From the NCBI GenBank assembly GCA_963718915.1, contig CAVRAI010000001.1:30001-62000 (forward strand): a DNA stretch of 32,000 nucleotides. Direction: 5' to 3'. The notes beneath the pieces were generated by a model. The model made no database searches. It was not told the DNA's origin and saw nothing but the letters and a program-made list of their open reading frames with translations. Below, one piece after another: positions 17,225 to 28,954 of this stretch. The translations under genes and the position numbers were made by a program. The stretch comes from an uncultured Chloroflexia bacterium. Its GTDB lineage: Bacteria > Chloroflexota > Ktedonobacteria > Ktedonobacterales > JADMIN01. Numbering within the stretch: position 1 is the first letter of the stretch; the number at the start of each line of letters is the position of its first letter.

Positions 17225-17480
17225 TCATCAATGCTCATCCATTTGGGCGCACAAGAACAAGATGCCCGCTCTCTACGTCAAGTATAGTGGTGAGGCGCCT
17301 CTGAGCCATTTTGAGGAACCATACTGGCTACGAGTCGGCCCCGCCATGCTACGATCATAGTTCGGCAGAAAACAGGCGTAGTGCTACCGAAATAGACATA
17401 TCCGTCAGGCACGGTTTGTGCCAGCAGCCGTGCACAAGGCATATCTGCGACGTTTAAGGATATGGGGAGAACATAGTACC

Positions 17481-20051
17481 ATGGATGATGAGACGATGCG
17501 CTACGGTCCTCTTCGGGCAGGAGGCTCGATACCGCTTGCCATTGGCGCGCCTGATATCAGCCAGGAAGATACGATCATCTCCCGTGGTGTTACCACAGCC
17601 GACCTCTGGCGCGGGCGCGTTACGCGGCGGCTCCCACCACAGCGGTCACTCCCTCCATGGGCTGTTCCAGTTATTATCGCGGTCTTACTCGCCATCTTGC
17701 TGCCGAGCGTCCTGGCAGTCGCCTCGGTCTTCGAGGATTATTCGTCGCTCAAGAATTTGGGCGAGTCGGGCATGCGCCATCTGCTCACCGCTAAAGCCGA
17801 TCTCTCCGGCATACTGGGCGGCATCTCATCCAACAACTCCCTCTCCTCGCTGCTCAACGACAACGCGATGGGAGACGCTCCCTATACCTACTTTGTCCAG
17901 CGCCAGGGCGGAACAGCGAACCAGATTAACGTGACCATTCACCCCGCCTCGAATATGCCCAAGTCTGTCAAGACCAAGAGCTACAAGCAGACGCTTACGA
18001 CAAACACCGCGCTCACCCTCGGCGGCACGCCGCCAACAGCCGACACGGCGACACCTACGCCCACCCCGAAGCCCGGCGCCACCGCCACCGCGACCCCGTC
18101 GGGATCGGGTAACTCGGGCTTTTCCTTCGACCCAGCGGCCGTCAACCGTGCGGTTACCGAGCTGCATCTCGCGCAGAAGGACTTCCAGACACTACGCAAC
18201 AAACTGGCCAATCCCGACTGGGTGCTCTCACTCGCGCCCCGTGTGCCCGGCGTTGGCTCACAGGTCAACACCGCGACAACGCTGGCCAACATCGGCTATG
18301 ACGCGGCCTCGCTGGGGGTGGTGCTGGCCGACTCCGCGCAGCCGCTGATCGCCCGCCTGCACGCCGCGTCAGCGACTGGCACTGGCAATAGCGAGTTGAT
18401 TACCCAGAGCGATGTCGAATCACTGCAGGCTGGACTGGCGCAGGGCCAGATCTACTTCAACCGTATCGAGCAGGACCTGGCGGGTGTCCAGGTGAGCAGT
18501 CTGCCGATCAGCGCTTCGCAGAAGGCCCAGGTAAATGAAGTGATCGCGCTGATGCCGCGCTTCAAAGACCTTATTCCGCAGGCAAGCTACTACATTGGAC
18601 TGATCGGCTGGGTCTTGGGGGCAGACGCGCCGCGCCACTTCCTGGTGCAGACGCTGGATAACGGTGAGCTGCGCGGCACGGGTGGTTTCGAGGGATTCTA
18701 CAGCATCCTGACCATCGATCATGGCAAGGTGAGTCCGATTACGCTGCTGCGCGCCAACGATATTGACTATGGCAAGGCTGGCTGTGGCAAGGGCGTAAAT
18801 AATTGGTCTATCAACAATCCAGCGCCCGCGGCGTATCGCTCCTGGTGGCCATTCGCCAACTGGGGGCTGCGCGACGCCAACCTCAACTCGGATTTCCCGA
18901 CATCGGCAAAGCTCATCATGAACGCCTATAGCCATGAGGCGTGCACCAACGTGGATGGCGTTATCCAGTTCACGCCAGATGCCATCGCGAGCGTGCTGCG
19001 TGTGACCGGGCCGCTGACGGTGCCAGTTTTCAATGAGACCGTGACGGCGGACAACCTCGAGACCAAGATTCATTACTATGAGGAAAACGAAGCGGGCATT
19101 GCGAAGGCGCAGGCACTCTTCCACGACTACAATCCCGCCGACCGGAACAAGATTCGCACGAAATTCACCGAGGCTGTACAGCAGTTGCTCGAAACGCACG
19201 TCCGCCATCTGCCCAAGAGCGAGCTTATCCCGCTGGCGAAGCAGGCTCTGGCTGATCTACGCTCCAAAGACGTGCAGGTCTACGTCACCAATACCGGCGT
19301 CGAGTCTCAACTGCAAAAACTGCACGCTGATGGCGCAATCGATACAACGCCCAACGTCGACGGTCTCTTCGTCTCGCAGGTGAATGTCAGCATCTCGAAG
19401 GGATCGCCCTATGTCGCCACGACAATCAGCGACAATGTCACACTCGACACCAAGGGTGGCGCGACCCATCAACTGAACATCGCGCTCAAAAACAATGCGC
19501 AGTCTGGCGCCCAGGTGGCTGGATACACAACCTACCGTGACTACGTGCGCGTCTACGTGCCCGCGGGGGCGCGGCTGACGTATGCCGACGGGTTTGATAC
19601 TGGGAAGCTGATGTGCGTCGCCCCCACGCCGCCTCCAACCAATCCCAATCCGCCCAACCCACCGAATCCGCCCAATCCGCCCAATCCGCCCACGACCTCG
19701 GCCCCGACCTGTGGGTCGAATCCCTACCCTGACGGTGAACGTGTCTGCCCGAGCGGACAGTATCTGCCGCCGAAGGATCAGCAGGGTGGCTATATCGTGC
19801 AGCCCGGCAACAAGCCCGGCACGCTGAACAATGTCGGCTATCCACCCGCGACGAAGAGCGACGTCCCCGGCCTGACGATGTGGGGCGGCTATGTGGTGAT
19901 CCCGCAGTCCTGCACCGCCACGCTCTCGCTGAACTACTACGTGCCTAACGTGGTGAACCTCCAGGCGGTCGCCAGCGCGCAGGCGACGCCAACCACAACC
20001 ACCGCGCCGACCGGCGATATGCTCGATCCATGGCGGCGCGGGCTGGCGTAA
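17481..20051 (+). CDS. DUF4012 domain membrane-anchored protein with a C-terminal Pro-Asn repeat
   Basis: N-terminal TM (WAVPVIIAVLLAILLPSVLAV). DUF4012 signature FLVQTLDNGELRGTGGFEGFYSILTIDHGKV. ATG 17481 is preferred (GGGGAGA 10 nt upstream) over the ORF-track start at 17418. Confidence 0.7.
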   Translation: MDDETMRYGPLRAGGSIPLAIGAPDISQEDTIISRGVTTADLWRGRVTRRLPPQRSLPPWAVPVIIAVLLAILLPSVLAVASVFEDYSSLKNLGESGMRHLLTAKADLSGILGGISSNNSLSSLLNDNAMGDAPYTYFVQRQGGTANQINVTIHPASNMPKSVKTKSYKQTLTTNTALTLGGTPPTADTATPTPTPKPGATATATPSGSGNSGFSFDPAAVNRAVTELHLAQKDFQTLRNKLANPDWVLSLAPRVPGVGSQVNTATTLANIGYDAASLGVVLADSAQPLIARLHAASATGTGNSELITQSDVESLQAGLAQGQIYFNRIEQDLAGVQVSSLPISASQKAQVNEVIALMPRFKDLIPQASYYIGLIGWVLGADAPRHFLVQTLDNGELRGTGGFEGFYSILTIDHGKVSPITLLRANDIDYGKAGCGKGVNNWSINNPAPAAYRSWWPFANWGLRDANLNSDFPTSAKLIMNAYSHEACTNVDGVIQFTPDAIASVLRVTGPLTVPVFNETVTADNLETKIHYYEENEAGIAKAQALFHDYNPADRNKIRTKFTEAVQQLLETHVRHLPKSELIPLAKQALADLRSKDVQVYVTNTGVESQLQKLHADGAIDTTPNVDGLFVSQVNVSISKGSPYVATTISDNVTLDTKGGATHQLNIALKNNAQSGAQVAGYTTYRDYVRVYVPAGARLTYADGFDTGKLMCVAPTPPPTNPNPPNPPNPPNPPNPPTTSAPTCGSNPYPDGERVCPSGQYLPPKDQQGGYIVQPGNKPGTLNNVGYPPATKSDVPGLTMWGGYVVIPQSCTATLSLNYYVPNVVNLQAVASAQATPTTTTAPTGDMLDPWRRGLA
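19628..19693 (+). repeat. In-frame imperfect 9-bp tandem repeat encoding (PPN)n
   Basis: CCAATCCCAATCCGCCCAACCCACCGAATCCGCCCAATCCGCCCAATCCGCCC encodes PPPTNPNPPNPPNPPNPPNPP. Confidence 0.8.
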
Positions 20052-20143
20052 CACATAAGAGCAGAGATATCTGGAATGGCTTGACGACAGCAGGACAATG
20101 AGGTAGACGACAATTGCTGGCTTGCTCATGAGGAGTTAGACTT

Positions 20144-20733
20144 GTGGGCTTCAGCAACTCCCAACTGTCCTGCACGACCTGTACGAAGTCCGCGAGTGGC
20201 GGCATGCGACAGCAATTCTGGCGGCAGACTACCCCAATGAACTCGGCGATATCGTCGAGATACTTTCCGCGTTTCGGCTGTTGCGCAGCCACATAGAGGT
20301 TGGCGGCGGCAACAAATCGAAGGTCGCGGGTACCATCGACAAAGCGTTTCACGACCGTGGTTGGCAGGAACGAAGCTTCGATACCCGATTTGTGGTGGAC
20401 AAGGTTGAGTTGCCATCACCAACCCATAAAATCGACTGCTTCCGCAATGGCATTGGCATCGAGATAGAGTGGAATAACAAGGATCCGTTCTTTGATCGCG
20501 ATCTCAACAACTTTCGCCTGTTGTTCGAGTTGCGAGTCATAGCCGTTGGGATCATCATTACCCGATGTGACAACCTGCAAGAGATATTCGATGCATTAGG
20601 TAGAGGATGTTCGTACGGAGAATCCACGACGCATATGAGCAAACTGTTCCCGAAAGTTGAAGGCGGCGGTGCTGGTGGATGCCCATTGCTCGTCTTTGGC
20701 ATCAGCCAGAAGCTGTATGTAGATGGGGCATAG
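20144..20733 (+). CDS. BglII/BstYI/BamHI-fold type II restriction endonuclease, with an apparent frameshift at the start
   Basis: Catalytic pattern IDCFRNGIGIEIEW (D-x8-E-x-E) followed by VGIIITR, as in BstYI (D-x8-E-V-Q) and BglII. The N-terminus (LHDLYEVREW..PNELGDIVEIL) is also family-like. The conserved frame is open from 20140 but has no ATG/GTG/TTG before 20281. The SD-coupled GTG at 20144 is in another frame. Confidence 0.6.
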
Positions 20734-20735
20734 AT

Positions 20736-21425
20736 ATGGATGGCTCTAATCAAACACCAACGGCTGCGGAGGAGTTGCTGTCGCAGCAGCGAGGGTATTT
20801 TGGAACGATTCTGGCTGATCCGCCATGGCGGTTTCAGAACCGTACGGGAAAGATGGCCCCTGAGCATCACCGTCTATCACGGTATGAAACCATGACGATG
20901 GATGACATTTATGAGCTTCCTGTAGCGCAGTTGGCGTCGCCGAAGAGCCATCTGTATCTCTGGGTGCCTAACGCCCTTATTCTTGAAGGGCTGGAAACCA
21001 TGAAGCGCTGGGGATTTACCTATAAGACCCAGCTTATCTGGTATAAGGTGCGCAAAGATGGCGGGCCGGATGGCCGGGGCGTCGGTTTCTATTTTCGGAA
21101 TGTGACCGAGATCATTCTCTTTGGCGTCCGCGGCAACTTGCGAACATCGGCGCCAGGGCGGCGACAAGTCAACATCATCACGACCCGGAAGCGCGAACAC
21201 TCACGCAAGCCCGATGAGCTTTATGACGTCATCGAGCAGTGCAGCCCAGGCCCTTATCTCGAACTGTTCGCTCGCCATCCCCGACCGAACTGGTCACAGT
21301 GGGGCGATGAGATATTCGACGCTCCTCCAACCCAGCTCCGCCTCCCAGAGCTGACTCAGGAGCCAGGGAAGCCTCAGTTGCGGCTGGTCAAACCTCCGCG
21401 CGCGCCAAAGGTTGCCACATCGTAA
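20736..21425 (+). CDS. MT-A70 family N6-adenine DNA methyltransferase
   Basis: ILADPPWRF (DPPW catalytic motif), LYLWVPN, WGFTY..LIWYK, FYFRNVTEIILFGVRG, HSRKPDELY. ATG 20736 lies 3 nt after the endonuclease stop. Confidence 0.85.
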   Translation: MDGSNQTPTAAEELLSQQRGYFGTILADPPWRFQNRTGKMAPEHHRLSRYETMTMDDIYELPVAQLASPKSHLYLWVPNALILEGLETMKRWGFTYKTQLIWYKVRKDGGPDGRGVGFYFRNVTEIILFGVRGNLRTSAPGRRQVNIITTRKREHSRKPDELYDVIEQCSPGPYLELFARHPRPNWSQWGDEIFDAPPTQLRLPELTQEPGKPQLRLVKPPRAPKVATS

Positions 21426-21426
21426 C

Positions 21427-21457
21427 AAAAAGCCCCTCCCCTGGCGCCGGGGAGGGG
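21427..21457 (-). terminator. Rho-independent terminator of dps (hairpin shared with the convergent methylase gene)
   Basis: 9-bp GC stem CCCCTCCCC (21433-21441) / GGGGAGGGG (21449-21457) with a 7-nt loop. On the minus-strand transcript the hairpin is followed by CUUUUU (plus-strand AAAAAG, 21427-21432). Confidence 0.7.
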
Positions 21458-21481
21458 TGTCGGAGAGGGGGTACTTCTCCG

Positions 21482-22048
21482 TTAGTCGGTGTTGTCCATC
21501 CCCTGGCAGACCTCGAAGAGGAACCACGTGCGGCGCTCGGTCTGGTCGATGATGACTTCCAGCTCGCTGGCCGTCGCGTAGTCGCGATTCTTGTCACACA
21601 CCTCGTGGGCGGCGCGCTGCATCTTAGCTATGTGCGCGTTGTCCTCCATCAGGCGGCGCGCCATCTCGCCCGGCGCGACAAACTCATTGTTGTCATCCTC
21701 GATGGTCTGTAGCTCGCCGATGTGGCTGATGCTGCGGATCGTCGTGCCACCCACGCGCCGCACGCGCTCCGCCAGGATGTCTATTGAAGCCAATAGCGCG
21801 TCGGCATGATCGTCGAAGAGCAGGTGATACTCACGGAAATGCGAGCCGGAGAGATGCCAGTGGAAGTTCTTGGTCTTCACATATAGGGCAAATGCGTCCG
21901 CGATGAGCGGATTGAGCGCTTCGGTGATCGCCCGCGTCTCCTGAGCGGTCAGATCAGTTCTGGTGGCCAGTTGCTTCGCCGCGGGATACGCCTTCACATG
22001 GCCATTCGTGTGTGTTCGGGTCGCATGGTGCGTCGTCTGCGTCGTCAT
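21482..22048 (-). CDS. dps: Dps (DNA starvation/stationary-phase protection, ferritin-like) protein
   Basis: ALYVKTKNFHWHLSGSHFREYHLLFDDH and AERVRRVGGTTI motifs. Confidence 0.9.
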   Translation of the reverse strand: MTTQTTHHATRTHTNGHVKAYPAAKQLATRTDLTAQETRAITEALNPLIADAFALYVKTKNFHWHLSGSHFREYHLLFDDHADALLASIDILAERVRRVGGTTIRSISHIGELQTIEDDNNEFVAPGEMARRLMEDNAHIAKMQRAAHEVCDKNRDYATASELEVIIDQTERRTWFLFEVCQGMDNTD

Positions 22049-22737: not shown

Positions 22738-22774
22738 TCGTGCATACGGCTGTGATGGGAATCGTCCGGTTGTC

Positions 22775-23071
22775 GCCAGCGATGCAGAGAGCGGCGCGCA
22801 TGCTGCGAGCGCCGCCGCGGGCCAGCCCGACAGACCTCCTGGAGCCACACGGTGAACGCGCGTGGATTGCTCGTGATGCGCGCTATGTAGCCGTCGTCGG
22901 GATGCGCCCGTTAGCGCGCGAGCGGTCAGCGTGACGCCGTGTAACATCGCCTGTCATGTCTGGCCAACAGAGGCCTCGCTCAAACTATACGAAGCGAGGC
23001 GAATGGTGGTGGCACCACGAGTCGGCGCGTTAGCCCTCGTCCTCCAAAATACTGAGGATGAGGGCTTTTTG
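22775..23071 (+). promoter_or_regulatory. T-box riboswitch leader with intrinsic terminator (Asp-type)
   Basis: GCGAUGCAGAGAG (AGAGAG at 22786-22791), the F-box CCGUUA (22908-22913) and the T-box core GGUGGUGGCACCACG (23005-23019). The terminator stem is AGCCCTCGTCCTC (23032-23044) / GAGGATGAGGGCT (23054-23066), followed by a T run. A candidate specifier GAC-A sits at 22829-22832. Confidence 0.7.
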
Positions 23072-23128
23072 TATGCGCATTCATTCTCCCCTCCCTGTGT
23101 CGGGGAGGAGTTGGGGGAGAGGTCCGCG

Positions 23129-23179
23129 ATGGATGACGACGACGATACCGGAGACGCTAATCTGGGGGAAGACGCCTGA
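23129..23179 (+). CDS. Candidate leader peptide MDDDDDTGDANLGEDA
   Basis: ATG 23129 is preceded by GGGGGAGAGG (23113-22) at 6-nt spacing. Seven of the 16 codons are Asp, five of them consecutive. TGA at 23177-23179 lies 97 nt upstream of aspS. Confidence 0.4.
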   Translation: MDDDDDTGDANLGEDA

Positions 23180-23275
23180 GACGCATACGCCTGTGTGGCT
23201 GGCCTGCCAGGGGCGCCCTTCCCAACATGAACACGCATGGCAGGCCAACGACAACGCCAAACAGGAGTAGTTCTC

Positions 23276-24622
23276 ATGACTTCCACACGCTCATCGTCAA
23301 CCTCAGCGCCATCTAGCGGACGTATCCGCTCCGTCGAGGTTGCCGCGCACGTTGGCCAGCGCATCCAGATCGCGGGCTGGCTGCACGCGGTGCGTCGGCT
23401 CGGCGGCATTAGTTTTCTCATCCTGCGCGACGGCTGGGGTATCGTTCAGGTCGTCGCCGCCAGCGATGAAGAACTGGCCCCGCTCCGCGAAGCACAGGCT
23501 GGCCCCGAAAGTGTCTTGCTGGTCGAGGGCGCTGTAGCCACCGCCAGCCAGGCTCCCGGCGGTATCGAACTGCACGAGCCGCACATCACCGTGCTTACCG
23601 CCGTCGCCGAGACGCCACCCGTCACCCTTGGCAAGCGCGAGTTGAAGGCCAATCTGACCACGCTGCTCGACGAAGCGGTAATCGCCAACCGCCATCCCAC
23701 GCGGCGAGCTATCTTCCGGCTGGGCGCCAGCGCGATGGCCAGCTTCCGCGAGACGCTCAGCGCGCGCGGCTTCACCGAGATCCAGTCGCCTAAACTGGTC
23801 GAATCGGCCACCGAGGGCGGCGCCAACGTCTTCGCGCTGGACTACTTTGGCCGCCCCGCCTACCTGGCGCAGAGTCCGCAGTTCTACAAGCAGATCATGG
23901 TCGGCGTCTTCGAGCGCGTCTTCGAGGTCGGCCCGGTCTTCCGCGCCGAGCCACACGACACCACCCGCCACATCAACGAATACGTCAGCCTGGATATGGA
24001 GATGGGCTTCATCGAGAACCACTTCACCATCATGGCGGTTGCCCGTGAGGCGCTGGCGGCGATGATGGAGCGGTTTCGCGCGGCCAACGCCGCCGAGCTT
24101 GTGTTGCTGGGCGTCACAATGCCGGAGGTTCCCGCCGAGATACCGCATATCCATTTCGCCGAGGCGCAGGAACTGATTTTTCAGCGGCATGGGGTGGATG
24201 TACGCGGCGAGCCAGACCTCTCGCCGCAAGACGAGCGCTGGCTGGGCGAATGGGCGCGCGCCGAGCATGGCAGCGACTTCGTCTTCGTCACCGGCTACCC
24301 GATGCGCAAGCGCCCCTTCTATACTCATCCCGATTCCGCGCGTCCGGAATACTCCAACTCAGCAGACCTGCTCTTCCGCGGGACGGAGTTGATGACTGGC
24401 GGGCAGCGGCTGCATCGCTACGATGACTATCTGGCGGCGCTGGCCGAGCGACACATCTCGCCTGAGCCATTCCGCGACTACCTGGAGGCGTTCCGCTATG
24501 GCATGCCGCCCCACGGTGGTTTCGCCATCGGATTGGAGCGCCTGCTGATGCAGCTCACTGGGCTGCCCTCGGTCAAGCTGGCGACGCTCTTCCCGCGCGA
24601 CCTGACCCGGCTGAGGCCGTAG
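23276..24622 (+). CDS. aspS: Aspartyl-tRNA synthetase, short archaeal/eukaryal-type (no GAD insertion)
   Basis: OB-fold N-terminus (IQIAGWLHAVRRLGGISFLILRDGWG). Class II motif 2 FRAEPHDTTRHINEYVSLDMEM and motif 3 GGFAIGLERLLM. ~448 aa from ATG 23276 (AGGAG RBS). Confidence 0.9.
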   Translation: MTSTRSSSTSAPSSGRIRSVEVAAHVGQRIQIAGWLHAVRRLGGISFLILRDGWGIVQVVAASDEELAPLREAQAGPESVLLVEGAVATASQAPGGIELHEPHITVLTAVAETPPVTLGKRELKANLTTLLDEAVIANRHPTRRAIFRLGASAMASFRETLSARGFTEIQSPKLVESATEGGANVFALDYFGRPAYLAQSPQFYKQIMVGVFERVFEVGPVFRAEPHDTTRHINEYVSLDMEMGFIENHFTIMAVAREALAAMMERFRAANAAELVLLGVTMPEVPAEIPHIHFAEAQELIFQRHGVDVRGEPDLSPQDERWLGEWARAEHGSDFVFVTGYPMRKRPFYTHPDSARPEYSNSADLLFRGTELMTGGQRLHRYDDYLAALAERHISPEPFRDYLEAFRYGMPPHGGFAIGLERLLMQLTGLPSVKLATLFPRDLTRLRP

Positions 24623-25611: not shown

Positions 25612-26439
25612 GTGAGCACAATGAATCGGGGTCTGCTGGATCGGGTCTGGAACTCCGTCACGGAAAGCCAGATCTGGCGGTCCATCTTCCGGCACGGCTA
25701 TCCAGATACCCCCCTCAATCAGTCACTGGTGATGATGGGGAATGTCTTCCTCCACCTGCACCCGGTCAAGGTCAGCCGCAAGGCGATGAAGATCACCTAC
25801 ACCTGGTGTCTGGGGGGGCTCTCCTTCTTCCTCTTTCTGGTTTTGACGATCACGGGCGTCTTTCTGATGTTCTACTTCGTGCCCGAGCAGAGCGTCGCCT
25901 ACTCCGATATCCAGCAGATCAACAGCGCTATTATGTTTGGCCAGCTGGTGCGCAACATGCATCGCTGGGCGGCCCACCTGATGGTGGTGACGGTCACATT
26001 GCACATGATTCGCGTGTTTTACCACGGCGCCTATAAGCCGCCACGCGAGTTCAACTGGGTCATCGGTGTGGTGCTCTTCCTGACAACCCTGCTGCTCAGC
26101 TTCACTGGCTATCTGCTACCCTGGGATCAGATTGGGTACTGGGCGATCACCGTCGGCTCGAACATGGCCAGCTACGCGCCACTGCTTGGCGCGCAGGTCC
26201 ACAACGTCCTCACCGGCCAGCCGGTGGGAGTTGGCCAGCCGACGCTCATTCGCTTCTATACACTGCATGTCATTGGCCTGCCACTTGTCGGCGCGGTGTT
26301 GATGGCAGTTCACTTCTGGCGCATCCGCAAGGATGGTGGAGAAGCGGGTCCGCCGCCGCCGTCGAAGCGCGAGATCGAGGCAGCGCGCGCCGAGCAGGCG
26401 AGGGCCGCGCAGCCGACACACGCAGGCTCACTCAACTAG
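25612..26439 (+). CDS. Cytochrome b, N-terminal four-helix (b6/PetB-like) subunit
   Basis: GQLVRNMHRWAAHLMVVTVTLHMIRVF (heme-ligand His pairs) and SFTGYLLPWDQIGYWA; GAGGAGG upstream. Confidence 0.9.
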   Translation: MSTMNRGLLDRVWNSVTESQIWRSIFRHGYPDTPLNQSLVMMGNVFLHLHPVKVSRKAMKITYTWCLGGLSFFLFLVLTITGVFLMFYFVPEQSVAYSDIQQINSAIMFGQLVRNMHRWAAHLMVVTVTLHMIRVFYHGAYKPPREFNWVIGVVLFLTTLLLSFTGYLLPWDQIGYWAITVGSNMASYAPLLGAQVHNVLTGQPVGVGQPTLIRFYTLHVIGLPLVGAVLMAVHFWRIRKDGGEAGPPPPSKREIEAARAEQARAAQPTHAGSLN

Positions 26440-26505
26440 TCGCGTATCAGCCCGGAGCCGTCTGCCCCACACCGGGTCAGGCGGCACATGCTGAAGGAGA
26501 AACCG

Positions 26506-27069
26506 ATGGCAACAACCGAGCCACGCCCGACTCGCACCGAGAATAGCGCAAATGGGAATGGGGCAGCCGGAGCGACCCAGAAACGGTATCGCACCCTGGC
26601 AGTGGTCAAGCAGGAGTCAGTCACCAGGATTGAGAAACAGCTCGAAGATTCGGTCTTCGTCTGGCCGCATCTACTGGTGCGCGAATTCCTCGCCGCGGTC
26701 ATCATGACGATGGTGCTGACGCTCGTCTCGATCTCCATCAACGCGCCGCTACGCGACCATGCGAACCCGAACCTGACGCCAAACCCGGCAAAGGCGCCAT
26801 GGTATTTCCTGGGTCTGCAAGAGATTCTGCACTACTTCCCGCCGACGGTGGCAGGCGTGCTGATTCCGGGCTTTGTGCTGGTGGGGCTGGCAATCCTGCC
26901 CTATGTTGACCGTAACCCCAGCCGCGCCTTCGAGGATCGCAAGCTCTCCATCGCGCTCTTTACGATTTTCGCGGTCTTCTTTGCCGTCGTGACACTCGCC
27001 GGCAGTTTCTTCCGCGGTTCTGGCTGGCAGTGGATCTGGCCCTGGCAAGGTGTCTTCTTCGACCTGTAA
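26506..27069 (+). CDS. Cytochrome b C-terminal / subunit IV (PetD-like)
   Basis: NPAKAPWYFLGLQEILHYFP (equivalent of the PEWY motif) plus three TM helices. ATG 26506 is preferred (AAGGAG RBS) over 26488. Confidence 0.85.
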   Translation: MATTEPRPTRTENSANGNGAAGATQKRYRTLAVVKQESVTRIEKQLEDSVFVWPHLLVREFLAAVIMTMVLTLVSISINAPLRDHANPNLTPNPAKAPWYFLGLQEILHYFPPTVAGVLIPGFVLVGLAILPYVDRNPSRAFEDRKLSIALFTIFAVFFAVVTLAGSFFRGSGWQWIWPWQGVFFDL

Positions 27070-27163
27070 GCCACTAGTTCACCTGACCCAGGCGCGCATG
27101 CGAGTCGAGCGGTGAGCCGACAAGTCGCATGGGTGTCGGCGCTACGAGACTGGGGATATCGCG

Positions 27164-27868
27164 ATGAGCACTAAGTACGATGATACGACACGGACACCAC
27201 AGGAATATGAGGTGCTGACCGGCGGCGGCGCGGAAGCGGCGCAGGTCGCCAAGCGCGGCATCAGTCGGCGCCAGATGCTGCGTCGCGCCACCGGCCTGAG
27301 CCTCGGCATCGTCGGCGCGGCGGCTGGTCTCGGCTCGCTGATGATGCTCTATCCCAACCTGGAAGGGCAGTTTGGCGCGCCAATCACGCTCAGGAACAAG
27401 GCGGTCTATATCCCCGCCGAGCAGAAGGACATGGCGCTCGATCAGAAGGGCATGTTCTACGAACAGAGCGGGAAGTCCTACATCATGCACCTCAAGTCTG
27501 GCGGCACCACACAGTTCCTCCAGTCTGGCGTCTCGCTGGCCAATTCAATGGAGGCGCAGGACTGGGTCAAAGATGGCGATACCTACTGGCTGGCGCTTTA
27601 TCAGGTCTGCGTGCATCTGGGCTGCAAGGTGCCATTCCGCGACGACTGCAACAGCTTCAAGTGCCCGTGCCATGGCTCCCACTACAACATCGATGGCGAG
27701 TATATCGATGGCCCGGCGCCGCGCAGTCTGGACCGCTTTACGATGACATTTGATAGCAGCGGCAACGTCGTCGTGGATACCGGCAAGCTGAATCAGCACG
27801 TCGAGCGCCCTGATGTGGGGACGCGCGTACTGCGGTTGCCTTATGTGCCGGTCTGTTCGGCGCAGTAA
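27164..27868 (+). CDS. Rieske [2Fe-2S] subunit with Tat signal
   Basis: CVHLGC ... CPCHGSHY cluster boxes. Twin-arginine signal [22 protein letters not shown]. Confidence 0.9.
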
Positions 27869-27934
27869 TTCTCTGAAGCGTCGTCAAAGAGTTGTCGAAG
27901 AGTCGTCAGACGCCTAGACATGAGGTCACTATAG

Positions 27935-28954
27935 ATGCAGAATAGTCGTAATCCGGGGCTGTTCGCCATAGCGATTGGGGTCGCGCTGGCGATACTCTTC
28001 GCGCTGCTGGGCCTTACGGGGATACTTGAGGGGCGGTTGGCCTTTGGGCTGGCGGCCATCTGTGTGATCGTGCCGATCCTGCTTTACATCTTCTATTCGC
28101 GTGGCAGCGCCATTACGCGCAGCGGCTATGCGGCACTCATCCTCACACTGGGAATCGGCCTGATCATCCCTCTGCTCATGGTGGGCCAGCAACAGGCGCG
28201 GGCCGACCGGACCGCTGCCCTTTACGATCTGTCCCTCCAACGCGGCGCGGCGCTCTTTGGCCAGTATTGCGCGACCTGCCATGGCTTCCAGGGGCAGGGT
28301 ATCGCCGGGCCAAAGCTCAATAACAATCCCGATGTGAACAAGTTTACCACCGACGACCTGACACGCATCATCTCGGCTGGCATCCCGGCCGATCCGGGAA
28401 ATCCAACAGTGCTGGCTATGCCCTCGTGGAGCAATCGCTACGGCGGCTCGCTCACCGATGATGATATCGCCTATCTGGTGGCGTTTATCCGCTCGTCGGA
28501 TCCGGCTTATCTCAAGCAGAATAATCTGCCCACGACCAATGGCTTCGGCTATGTGCTGGGCACGCTGACGAACCCGACCCAGATCGCCGATTACAATAAT
28601 CAGCTGAAAACGGGCAGCAAACCGCCAGCGAACCAGTTCACCGATATGTCCAGCCAGCAGGCGGTCACGATACCGATTGAAGATACCACGAGTAATCCAT
28701 CGGGCTTCGATTTCACGCCGCCGAACATCATCATCAAGGTGGGTACGACGGTCACGTGGGAAAACAAGACGGCACAGCCGCACAACGTCTTCCCGCGCCA
28801 GGGAAGCACTCCACCGGATGCGACCTTCAAGTCGCCACCGGTCATCAATGCGCAGACAGGTACGTATTCGTTCACGTTTACCAAGGCTGGGGAGTATCCA
28901 TACTACTGCGCCATTCACCCGGCAATGCTGGGATGGGTGTCGGTGGTGGCCTAG
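27935..28954 (+). CDS. Membrane-anchored fusion of a mono-heme cytochrome c and a type-1 copper cupredoxin
   Basis: Three N-terminal TM helices. The heme c site is CATCH, with a distal AMPSW Met. The C-terminal cupredoxin has ligands PHNVF ... YYCAIHPAM (C-x2-H-x2-M, amicyanin-like spacing). Confidence 0.8.
   Translation: MQNSRNPGLFAIAIGVALAILFALLGLTGILEGRLAFGLAAICVIVPILLYIFYSRGSAITRSGYAALILTLGIGLIIPLLMVGQQQARADRTAALYDLSLQRGAALFGQYCATCHGFQGQGIAGPKLNNNPDVNKFTTDDLTRIISAGIPADPGNPTVLAMPSWSNRYGGSLTDDDIAYLVAFIRSSDPAYLKQNNLPTTNGFGYVLGTLTNPTQIADYNNQLKTGSKPPANQFTDMSSQQAVTIPIEDTTSNPSGFDFTPPNIIIKVGTTVTWENKTAQPHNVFPRQGSTPPDATFKSPPVINAQTGTYSFTFTKAGEYPYYCAIHPAMLGWVSVVA

Follow-up and report, generated by a model that had tools for sequence, protein, structure and literature searches.

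Leader-borne control of aminoacyl-tRNA synthetase genes takes several forms, and these include the leader peptide that governs pheST in Enterobacteria, as well as T-box riboswitches, whose tandem arrangements are known and sharpen the response. Leader-peptide attenuators have also been described for leuS and trpS of Streptomyces (PMC1262725), and together with pheST these cases mean that synthetase genes can be controlled by leader-peptide attenuation. Nearest in layout to the element considered here is the LEU element, found upstream of leuA in actinobacteria. It has an upstream open reading frame (ORF) carrying a run of the cognate codon, a pseudoknot that is conserved, and a base stem in which the downstream Shine-Dalgarno (SD) sequence takes part (Seliverstov et al. 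2005, PMC1262725). Conserved unpaired nucleotides are absent from the LEU element, in which the SD is paired with the codon run itself, and its authors, who cite Leu-codon mutations without effect on regulation, favoured a protein factor and doubted translation (PMC1262725). Here, we analysed the leader of aspS, the aspartyl-tRNA synthetase (AspRS) gene, in a 32,000-nt stretch of DNA from an uncultured Chloroflexia bacterium (contig CAVRAI010000001.1, positions 30,001 to 62,000; hereafter, the window). Between an Asp-specific T-box and aspS, this leader carries a short ORF rich in Asp codons, followed by a pseudoknot. Judged from the sequence and its relatives, we read the arrangement as a candidate ribosome-mediated leader-peptide attenuator for a non-discriminating AspRS gene, to which we assign a probability of about 0.55. 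The more general claim, that a functional Asp/Asn leader ORF and pseudoknot regulate aspS, is one we hold with considerable confidence, while the specific wiring of the switch is proposed tentatively, at or somewhat short of an even chance.

The Asp/Asn leader ORF of aspS

The leader ORF opens with an ATG at position 23129 and closes with a TGA at 23177–23179, and its 16 codons encode the peptide MDDDDDTGDANLGEDA (23129–23179 with the stop codon; like all other leader features given below, on the forward strand). Re-reading of the sequence agreed with the earlier note in these coordinates, in the seven Asp codons, five of them consecutive (23132–23146) and two set apart (23153–23155 and 23171–23173), and in the purine-rich SD GGGGGAGAGG (23113–23122), which is spaced 6 nt from the ATG. 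Overlooked in that note was a single Asn codon (AAT, 23159–23161), which is also the last Asp or Asn codon before the first helix (S1) of the downstream structure. Runs of five Asp codons, (GAY)5, occur once in the window, against 0.005 expected from shuffles. The start codon of aspS lies at 23276, and its SD is the AGGAG at 23263–23267. Between the ORF and aspS (23180–23276), a terminator scan returned no intrinsic terminator, and it is also correct, as had been stated, that no U-tract is present 3' of the downstream hairpin. With no terminator as a regulated output, the leader is not a classical transcription attenuator.

For comparison, we used a sample of about 169 Chloroflexota aspS loci, most of which have an Asp T-box motif, usually some 100 nt ahead of the gene. 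The distance grows to 200–370 nt in a subset of these loci, and it is in the extra space there that an Asp-rich ATG ORF recurs. Altogether, an ATG ORF is found at the same place in about 43 leaders, mostly from Ktedonobacteria (37 identified by ORF search, and six by structure with R1, a covariance model of the pseudoknot core), and examples include MADDCDCDCDGDNDPWERA, MDNDGDDNDREEGTEHL (Dictyobacter), MESDDGNDDDDNNTINILGST (Ktedonobacter robiniae), and MDHDNDRDDNNLWEGV. When aspS upstream regions are aligned, a check that the earlier note had put forward, the short ORF with its SD, ATG, and Asp run is conserved in position in loci whose AspRS identity ranges from about 63% to 94%. All orthologues have a purine-rich SD ahead of the ATG, and the ATG itself is invariant in the larger of our two alignments (A1, 37 sequences).

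By its AspRS, the window belongs in Chloroflexota, near Ktedonobacterales metagenome-assembled genomes, and nine loci with an AspRS 86–94% identical to that of the window served as a phylogenetic footprint. Here, the T-box terminator is kept, the following 30–130 nt are scrambled by indels of 0–100 nt, and beyond this spacer the SD, the ATG, the ORF, and the downstream helices are all conserved. Differences within the ORF are mostly synonymous swaps (GAT/GAC, AAT/AAC, GGA/GGG, and GCT/GCC). That the ORF is kept in relatives rules out a chance ORF. Moreover, in all six loci that were found structure-first, an ORF with Asp/Asn codons starts with ATG and stops at or close to segment A (the 5' strand of S1), and such an ORF was found in none of the 26 long-spacer leaders that lack the structure. 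The R1 model has one copy in the window and, among the loci, matches solely ahead of aspS.

More conspicuously, the codon content of these ORFs is strongly skewed. In 41 distinct orthologous ORFs, Asp makes up 35.2% of the codons, against 3.9% in the adjacent aspS genes, and Asn makes up 10.1%, against 1.9%, which is a five-fold enrichment. Asn, which was not a criterion in finding the ORFs, is present in 36 of the 41, and in the other two reading frames Asp and Asn amount to 0–1%. Among the 308 codons ahead of segment A, we counted 158 for Asp, 44 for Asn, and seven for Glu; about two thirds of the codons before the structured part are therefore Asp or Asn. Such an abundance of Asp and Asn, with Glu being rare, argues that the signal is codon or tRNA identity and not acidity. 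Orthologues commonly have an Asp run next to the start codon, as does the window, where the peptide starts with MDDDDD, and in many others the Asp codons are interspersed (MDNDGDDND, MDHDNDRDDNN), with no long acidic run.

A pseudoknot directly downstream of the Asp/Asn codons

Two pairings had been pointed out in the RNA downstream of the Asp run, these being a perfect 9-bp hairpin, GGCCTGCCA (23201–23209) with TGGCAGGCC (23238–23246), and a helix between GGGAAG within the ORF and CTTCCC in the hairpin loop. The hairpin is present exactly as claimed, and CTTCCC is located at 23218–23223 as given, though GGGAAG is at 23166–23171 and not at 23165–23170, an error of one position. What did not hold was the view of the two as competing pairings, since both are stems of a single H-type pseudoknot, and each shows covariation.

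Stem S1 is formed by segment A (GGGAAG.CGCC, 23166–23176), which spans the final four codons of the ORF up to its stop codon, and by segment A' (GGCG..CUUCCC, 23212–23223), which is located within the loop of the second stem, directly 3' of its 5' arm. Out of 10 pairs in S1, 5–7 are changed on both sides, with 89–95% of the alignment cells paired, and the A:A' duplex has a mean energy of −17.3 kcal/mol (z = −3.1). The second stem (S2, or P2) consists of the 5' arm GGCCUGCCA (23201–23209) and the 3' arm UGGCAGGCC (23238–23246), with covariation in A1 and in a cleaner alignment of 27 sequences (A2); 6–7 of its nine pairs are changed on both sides, and 91–97% of cells are paired. Over both stems together, 90.4% of cells are paired in A1, against 32–50% in slid-partner controls, and 96.1% in A2, with the slid controls of both alignments spanning 32–52%. 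Changes on both sides affect 14 of the 19 pairs in A1 and 11 of the 19 in A2, and none of 500 shuffles reached the observed values. In loci L053, L080, and L133, the pseudoknot architecture is kept with unrelated stem sequences.

The first loop of the pseudoknot (L1, 23177–23200) comprises the ORF stop codon and a spacer, and this segment may alternatively act as the 5' strand of the closing helix described below (−24.2 kcal/mol, z = −4.96). Across the loci, the loops measure 10–43 nt (L1), 1–2 nt (L2), and 9–29 nt (L3), with stems of 10 and 9 bp, and by these predicted dimensions the two helices are sterically compatible with being formed at once. As a separate observation, the ACGCCTG(A) motif at the ORF stop is directly repeated two to three times in L1 (23172–23196 in the window, as well as in L161 and in L165 at 1095–1125, where the repeat takes the form GACGCCTGAAACGCCTGAAACGCCTGTG), and its CGCC could provide alternative registers for pairing with the GGCG of A'.

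The spatial relationship between the codons and the pseudoknot is strikingly constant. In 30 of 31 distinct ORFs, exactly 4 nt separate the last Asp or Asn codon from the first S1 pair, with the sole exception being an Asn-to-His substitution. The stop codon is immediately 3' of S1 in 23 of the 31, and is always ahead of P2. If the last Asp/Asn codon occupies the A site, the distance from the first P-site base to the start of S1 would be about 10 nt, which by ribosome helicase studies is where the mRNA channel opens. A ribosome held on this codon would touch the pseudoknot without melting it, and one codon further it would have to unwind it. A frameshift or readthrough signal was considered and rejected, as the slippery site is absent: no heptamer of the form X XXY YYZ was found 5–9 nt ahead of the pseudoknot, where GAC GCT AAT CTG precedes S1, and the sequence just ahead of S1 varies among the orthologues.

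A competing helix over the aspS initiation region

In the window, the segment 23177–23278 folds into a hairpin of −44.4 kcal/mol (z = −3.54, with 0 of 200 shuffles folding as well), in which the UGA of the leader ORF pairs with the UCA preceding the aspS AUG, and both the aspS SD and AUG are enclosed. The 3' strand of this closing helix (23255–23278) holds the SD AGGAG (23263–23267) and the start codon (23276–23278). When segment A plus L1 was paired with the post-P2 segment plus SD and AUG in 32 loci and compared with shuffles, the mean z was −2.6, and z fell below −1.64 in 26 of the loci; in 28, the SD window has three or more nucleotides paired. Cognate partners outperformed cross-clade ones by a mean of 8.2 kcal/mol, with 22 of the 32 loci ranking within the best 5%, which argues that the closing helix co-evolves locus by locus. 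Because it uses segment A, the closing helix is mutually exclusive with S1, and in the window it is the more stable of the two (−24 to −31 vs −16 kcal/mol). On these predicted energies, the real competitor of the pseudoknot is the closing helix, masking the aspS SD and AUG, and the output that was missing from the earlier note acquires a plausible form, translational and not terminator-based.

Two simpler pairings were rejected. A' as an anti-SD that masks the SD of aspS is unsupported as a general mechanism, as duplexes between A' and the translation initiation region are no better than shuffles (mean z = −0.4), and in L053 and L133 A' also lacks SD complementarity. Segment A alone pairs weakly with the aspS initiation region (mean z = −0.9), becoming convincing only together with L1.

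The upstream T-box and the regulated enzyme

Upstream of the leader ORF, a probable Asp T-box leader (22743–23047) matches RF00230 over its full length (model positions 1–219 of 219, E = 8.8e-10), with a score of 49.7 bits that falls below the Rfam gathering score of 93. The specifier codon GAC (22833–22835, with a second GAC at 22829–22831) in Stem I and the T-box motif AAUGGUGGUGGCACCACGAG (near 23003–23022) are nevertheless both visible. The T-box terminator (23032–23071) has a 13-bp stem (23032–23044 with 23054–23066), a 9-nt loop, and UUUUU at 23067–23071; its stem folds with −24 kcal/mol (z = −5.85, with 0 of 200 shuffles folding equally well), and our terminator scan overlooked it because the loop is longer than 8 nt. 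Other Asp T-boxes of this group behave alike, with those of the window, L032, L079, L095, and L133 scoring 48.7–64.3 bits, all below the gathering score. The T-box of L053 is recognisable by eye, yet it was missed even at E = 0.01.

As for the ORF-pseudoknot module, Rfam gave no match to 23071–23290 at E values up to 10, and in Rfam searches of the window and seven loci, T-boxes were the sole family found for the aspS leader. With every T-box of the group below its gathering score and a second module that has no family, the whole leader is missed by annotation pipelines. A second, degenerate T-box in the 200-nt spacer was also considered and rejected, there being no Rfam match. In the aspS leaders that we compared, the T-box precedes the leader ORF in nearly all cases, which upholds, as an architecture, the earlier suggestion of two sensors in series. 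In L064 and L080, the ORF and pseudoknot occur without a detectable T-box, and from this we take the module to be an autonomous unit and the T-box an added layer.

Some other Chloroflexota have a different arrangement, in which a full T-box is followed by a second antiterminator/terminator (discriminator) domain alone, without Stem I. Such discriminator-duplicated aspS leaders are seen in L070 (~2170–2500), L139, and L062, and also in L038, L057, L065, and L075; in the latter four, two T-box motifs are 94–145 nt apart. The duplicated domain sits where the window has its ORF and pseudoknot, which suggests repeated origins, in differing forms, of a second checkpoint beyond the T-box terminator.

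The gene downstream, aspS (23276–24622 on the forward strand), encodes an AspRS of archaeal type with 448 residues, which scores 534.5 bits (cut-off 353) with NF003483, the model for aspartate–tRNA(Asn) ligase, and 392.1 bits (cut-off 368.4) with TIGR00458. By these model matches, the enzyme is a non-discriminating AspRS, supplying both tRNA-Asp and tRNA-Asn. Transamidation is the established pathway that then makes Asn-tRNA; an absence of asparaginyl-tRNA synthetase from these genomes is our assumption. A mixture of Asp and Asn codons fits an enzyme that serves both tRNAs. The T-box with its GAC specifier would see tRNA-Asp only, and an ORF with both types of codon would also report on tRNA-Asn. 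We also noticed that AspRS in the clade of the window has a Ser/Thr-rich N-terminal extension of about 13–15 residues (23276–23320 in the window), which other orthologues lack and whose evolution is faster than that of the leader ORF.

Proposed mechanism and its alternatives

We propose a pseudoknot switch gated by hungry codons, a class of riboregulator not described before, which would read Asp-tRNA(Asp) and Asn-tRNA(Asn) and set the translation of AspRS in series with the T-box; we give this proposal an even chance. Since the ORF is downstream of the T-box, only transcripts that extend beyond the T-box terminator would come under its control. Under a shortage of Asp-tRNA(Asp) or Asn-tRNA(Asn), the first ribosome would wait on an Asp/Asn codon just short of segment A. 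As A' is transcribed ahead of the aspS initiation region, the held ribosome would leave A free to capture A' first, and the resulting pseudoknot would lock away A and L1, with the aspS ribosome-binding site remaining open. When charged tRNAs are plentiful, the ribosome would pass through A, melt S1, and terminate at the stop codon, at the foot of P2, and after its release the more stable closing helix would zip down from P2 and mask the aspS SD and AUG. Ribosome progress through the ORF would, as we infer, choose between the two folds. The direction is presumably homeostatic, with low charging leading to more AspRS, and this agrees with sensor codons that lie just outside S1. The effects of the T-box (uncharged tRNA-Asp, transcription) and the leader ORF (charged tRNA-Asp and tRNA-Asn, translation) would multiply, and the ORF would add a read-out of tRNA-Asn that is invisible to the T-box.

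Several points weigh against this proposal. Translation of the ORF, stalling within it, and an effect on aspS are all things we infer from sequence comparison, and the direction of regulation draws on physiological logic and on the kinetics of folding during transcription; a ribosome stalled upstream of A would not by its own presence shift the equilibrium from the closing helix towards the pseudoknot. The support for the closing helix comes from energies and the cognate/non-cognate control, and not from column-wise covariation, and the helix is weak in L046, L131, L146, and the L095 group, where it abuts the SD instead of covering it. Folding constrained by ribosome footprints gave only a weak and noisy trend in SD accessibility, with a median unpaired probability of 0.32 for the free RNA, 0.56 with A and A' engaged, 0.31 with a stalled ribosome, and 0.54 with a ribosome at the stop codon. 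The exact 4-nt spacing is tighter than leaving A free requires, so that the proposal does not account for the whole geometry. As to the ORF itself, its stop codon in L133 and L067 is at the start of segment A and not after it, and in L034 it has no nearby stop. Lastly, the dependence of these organisms on transamidation, for want of an asparaginyl-tRNA synthetase, is assumed.

The same two folds could instead be wired for positive coupling, in which the closing helix masks the ribosome-binding site by default, and a ribosome on the ORF stop codon melts the base of the helix and admits the 30S subunit; Asp/Asn stalling would then lower AspRS, or else the main role of the ORF would be to open up a structured leader. 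In MS2, the coat and replicase genes are known to be coupled through long-range pairing, and the aspS leader has features to match, in that the ORF stop pairs with the nucleotides right before the aspS AUG, the closing helix outweighs S1 in the window (−24 to −31 vs −16 kcal/mol), and SD accessibility goes up with a ribosome at the stop (median 0.54 vs 0.32). Still, we think coupling unlikely: it has no role for the pseudoknot, although this is the best conserved part, it leaves unexplained both the Asp/Asn identity and the 4-nt distance from the codon to S1, and it would cut the synthetase exactly at low charging, which is opposite to the upstream T-box. Moreover, a terminating ribosome would extend no more than about 10–12 nt beyond the stop and would not get to the segment that pairs with the SD (23191–23195). 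An output on transcription or mRNA stability, by Rho-dependent termination control, as exemplified by the tna and mgtA leaders, or by exposure of an RNase site, would suit the lack of an intrinsic terminator after the structure, the closing helices that stop short of the SD in several clades, and the C-rich, G-poor stretch 3' of P2 in the window (23247–23262). Against this, a conserved unpaired C-rich tract was not seen in the alignment, and the SD and AUG lie within a −44 kcal/mol helix in the window and its clade, which speaks for a direct translational output; we rate such an explanation as more doubtful than coupling.

Less probable than either is that the acidic nascent peptide is what matters, and not hungry codons, with the leader sensing Mg2+ or the state of the ribosome. 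Translating ribosomes are destabilised by Asp or Glu runs at the N-terminus, as has been proposed for mgtL (intrinsic ribosome destabilisation), and the MDDDDD start of the window peptide and the Asp run that commonly follows the start codon in orthologues are of this kind. Glu should serve such a sensor equally well, yet it accounts for seven of the 308 codons before A, against 158 for Asp, whereas the uncharged Asn is enriched five-fold; in addition, the Asp codons are interspersed in many orthologues (such as MDNDGDDND and MDHDNDRDDNN), and the element is found solely ahead of aspS. An RNA that binds a protein or ligand without being translated, for instance an operator for AspRS autoregulation comparable to the thrS operator, with the ORF incidental, appears just as improbable. 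Some synthetase genes are autoregulated through tRNA-like operators, and the pseudoknot is compact and well conserved. This conservation, however, is confined to the helices, with L1 and L3 varying freely in length and sequence, and there is no conserved pocket or anticodon-like GUC loop. An incidental ORF is also difficult to reconcile with an invariant ATG, an ever-present SD, a frame and Asp/Asn codons kept through synonymous changes, and the finding that every structure-first match carries the ORF.

Other features of the leader and its genomic surroundings

In the interval between the T-box terminator and the SD of the leader ORF, the minimum-free-energy fold contains a small hairpin, P0 (CCUCCCUG with CGGGGAGG, 23090–23108). 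The 5' arm of this hairpin (region 23086–23110) is anti-SD-like and could also pair with the SD of the leader ORF (23113–23122); a hairpin is found at the same position in the closest relatives too, with differing sequences. Regarding the start of aspS, the first in-frame ATG (23237) was rejected, as it has no SD, is placed inside the P2 3' arm, and is unconserved in relatives; the real start is the ATG at 23276. An antisense ORF (22954–23421) is likewise unsupported, the spacer having large indels among close relatives.

In L034 (~2350–2600), the pseudoknot is accompanied by an ORF that begins with MRDDDKLNPRER and reads on through the structure, with no stop near segment A, and this copy may be decaying or reflect an assembly error. 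Among aspS leaders without the ORF, those of L086 (860–1100), L087, and L011 (2270–2480) have long, near-perfect inverted-repeat insertions in the interval from terminator to gene, and these resemble miniature mobile elements.

Upstream of aspS in the window (17418–22048) are genes for a DUF4012 protein, an MT-A70 family methyltransferase, and a ferritin-like protein, and downstream (25612–28951) is a cluster for cytochrome b, a Rieske protein, and a cytochrome c-cupredoxin. In relatives, a divergent gene for a PF04020 membrane protein lies upstream of the T-box. Elsewhere in the window, a GC-rich palindrome, GCCCGCGCAGGCGGGC, is present in two inverted copies within one intergenic region (2574–2589 on the reverse strand and 2729–2744 on the forward strand). 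One copy matches the Rfam family CRISPR-DR28 (36.5 bits); as there is no array, the palindromes are probably a terminator or a repetitive extragenic palindromic (REP)-like hairpin rather than CRISPR.

Comparison with known systems

An Asp/Asn leader or a leader peptide for aspS was not found in the full-text literature, a search whose scope left out most subscription journals, so that absence there is not proof, and an aspS entry in a Shewanella screen turned out to be an unrelated prediction. To our knowledge, no other leader ORF relies on Asp and Asn codons, and no other mRNA has a T-box and a leader-peptide sensor placed in series. If the proposed attenuator is real, two tRNA sensors of unrelated mechanism would be combined in a single leader, with the transamidation route to Asn-tRNA integrated as well. 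The attenuator would also show how a transamidating cell ties the synthesis of a non-discriminating AspRS to both tRNA pools, a coupling that a T-box with a single specifier cannot provide. The fixed 4 nt would set the hungry codon against the pseudoknot in a geometry like that of frameshift signals, put to a different use. Being small and well defined, the element would allow a direct test of how the helicase activity of the ribosome, the rate of decoding, and RNA switching influence one another, and a new RNA family could be founded on the alignment and covariance model.

With the classical attenuators (trp, his, leu, thr, and pheST, as well as leuS and trpS of Streptomyces), the module shares an SD-led short ORF whose codons report on the product, and an ORF that overlaps one strand of alternative RNA structures. 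In contrast to these, there is no intrinsic terminator, and the alternative to the pseudoknot masks a downstream SD and AUG. The pairing scheme also differs, being 1:3 and 2:4 in the pseudoknot, as opposed to 1:2, 2:3, and 3:4 in the classical cases, and the codons are those for Asp and Asn, in an element that stands behind a T-box and not alone. The LEU element is the nearest described analogue, having a leader ORF, a pseudoknot, and an SD stem, with no conserved unpaired nucleotides. Unlike in the LEU element, the codon run of the aspS leader is upstream of all helices, at a fixed 4 nt from the first stem, and the phylum, gene, and sequence are different.

As compared with T-box riboswitches (RF00230), tandem and translational ones included, the gene class and the signal, tRNA charging, are the same, though the second module has no Stem I, T-box sequence, or Rfam match, and would read charged tRNA by way of the ribosome, where a T-box binds uncharged tRNA directly. 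Comparable in its manner of output is the translational attenuation of ermC and cat, along with the coupling in MS2, where the position of a ribosome on an upstream ORF governs the pairing of a downstream ribosome-binding site. In these systems, however, stalling is brought about by a drug or nascent peptide, or there is none, and neither hungry codons for a synthetase nor a pseudoknot as the alternative fold is involved. On its predicted structures and codon content, the aspS module is best filed with the translational attenuators, as one that would work in the manner of a leader-peptide attenuator.

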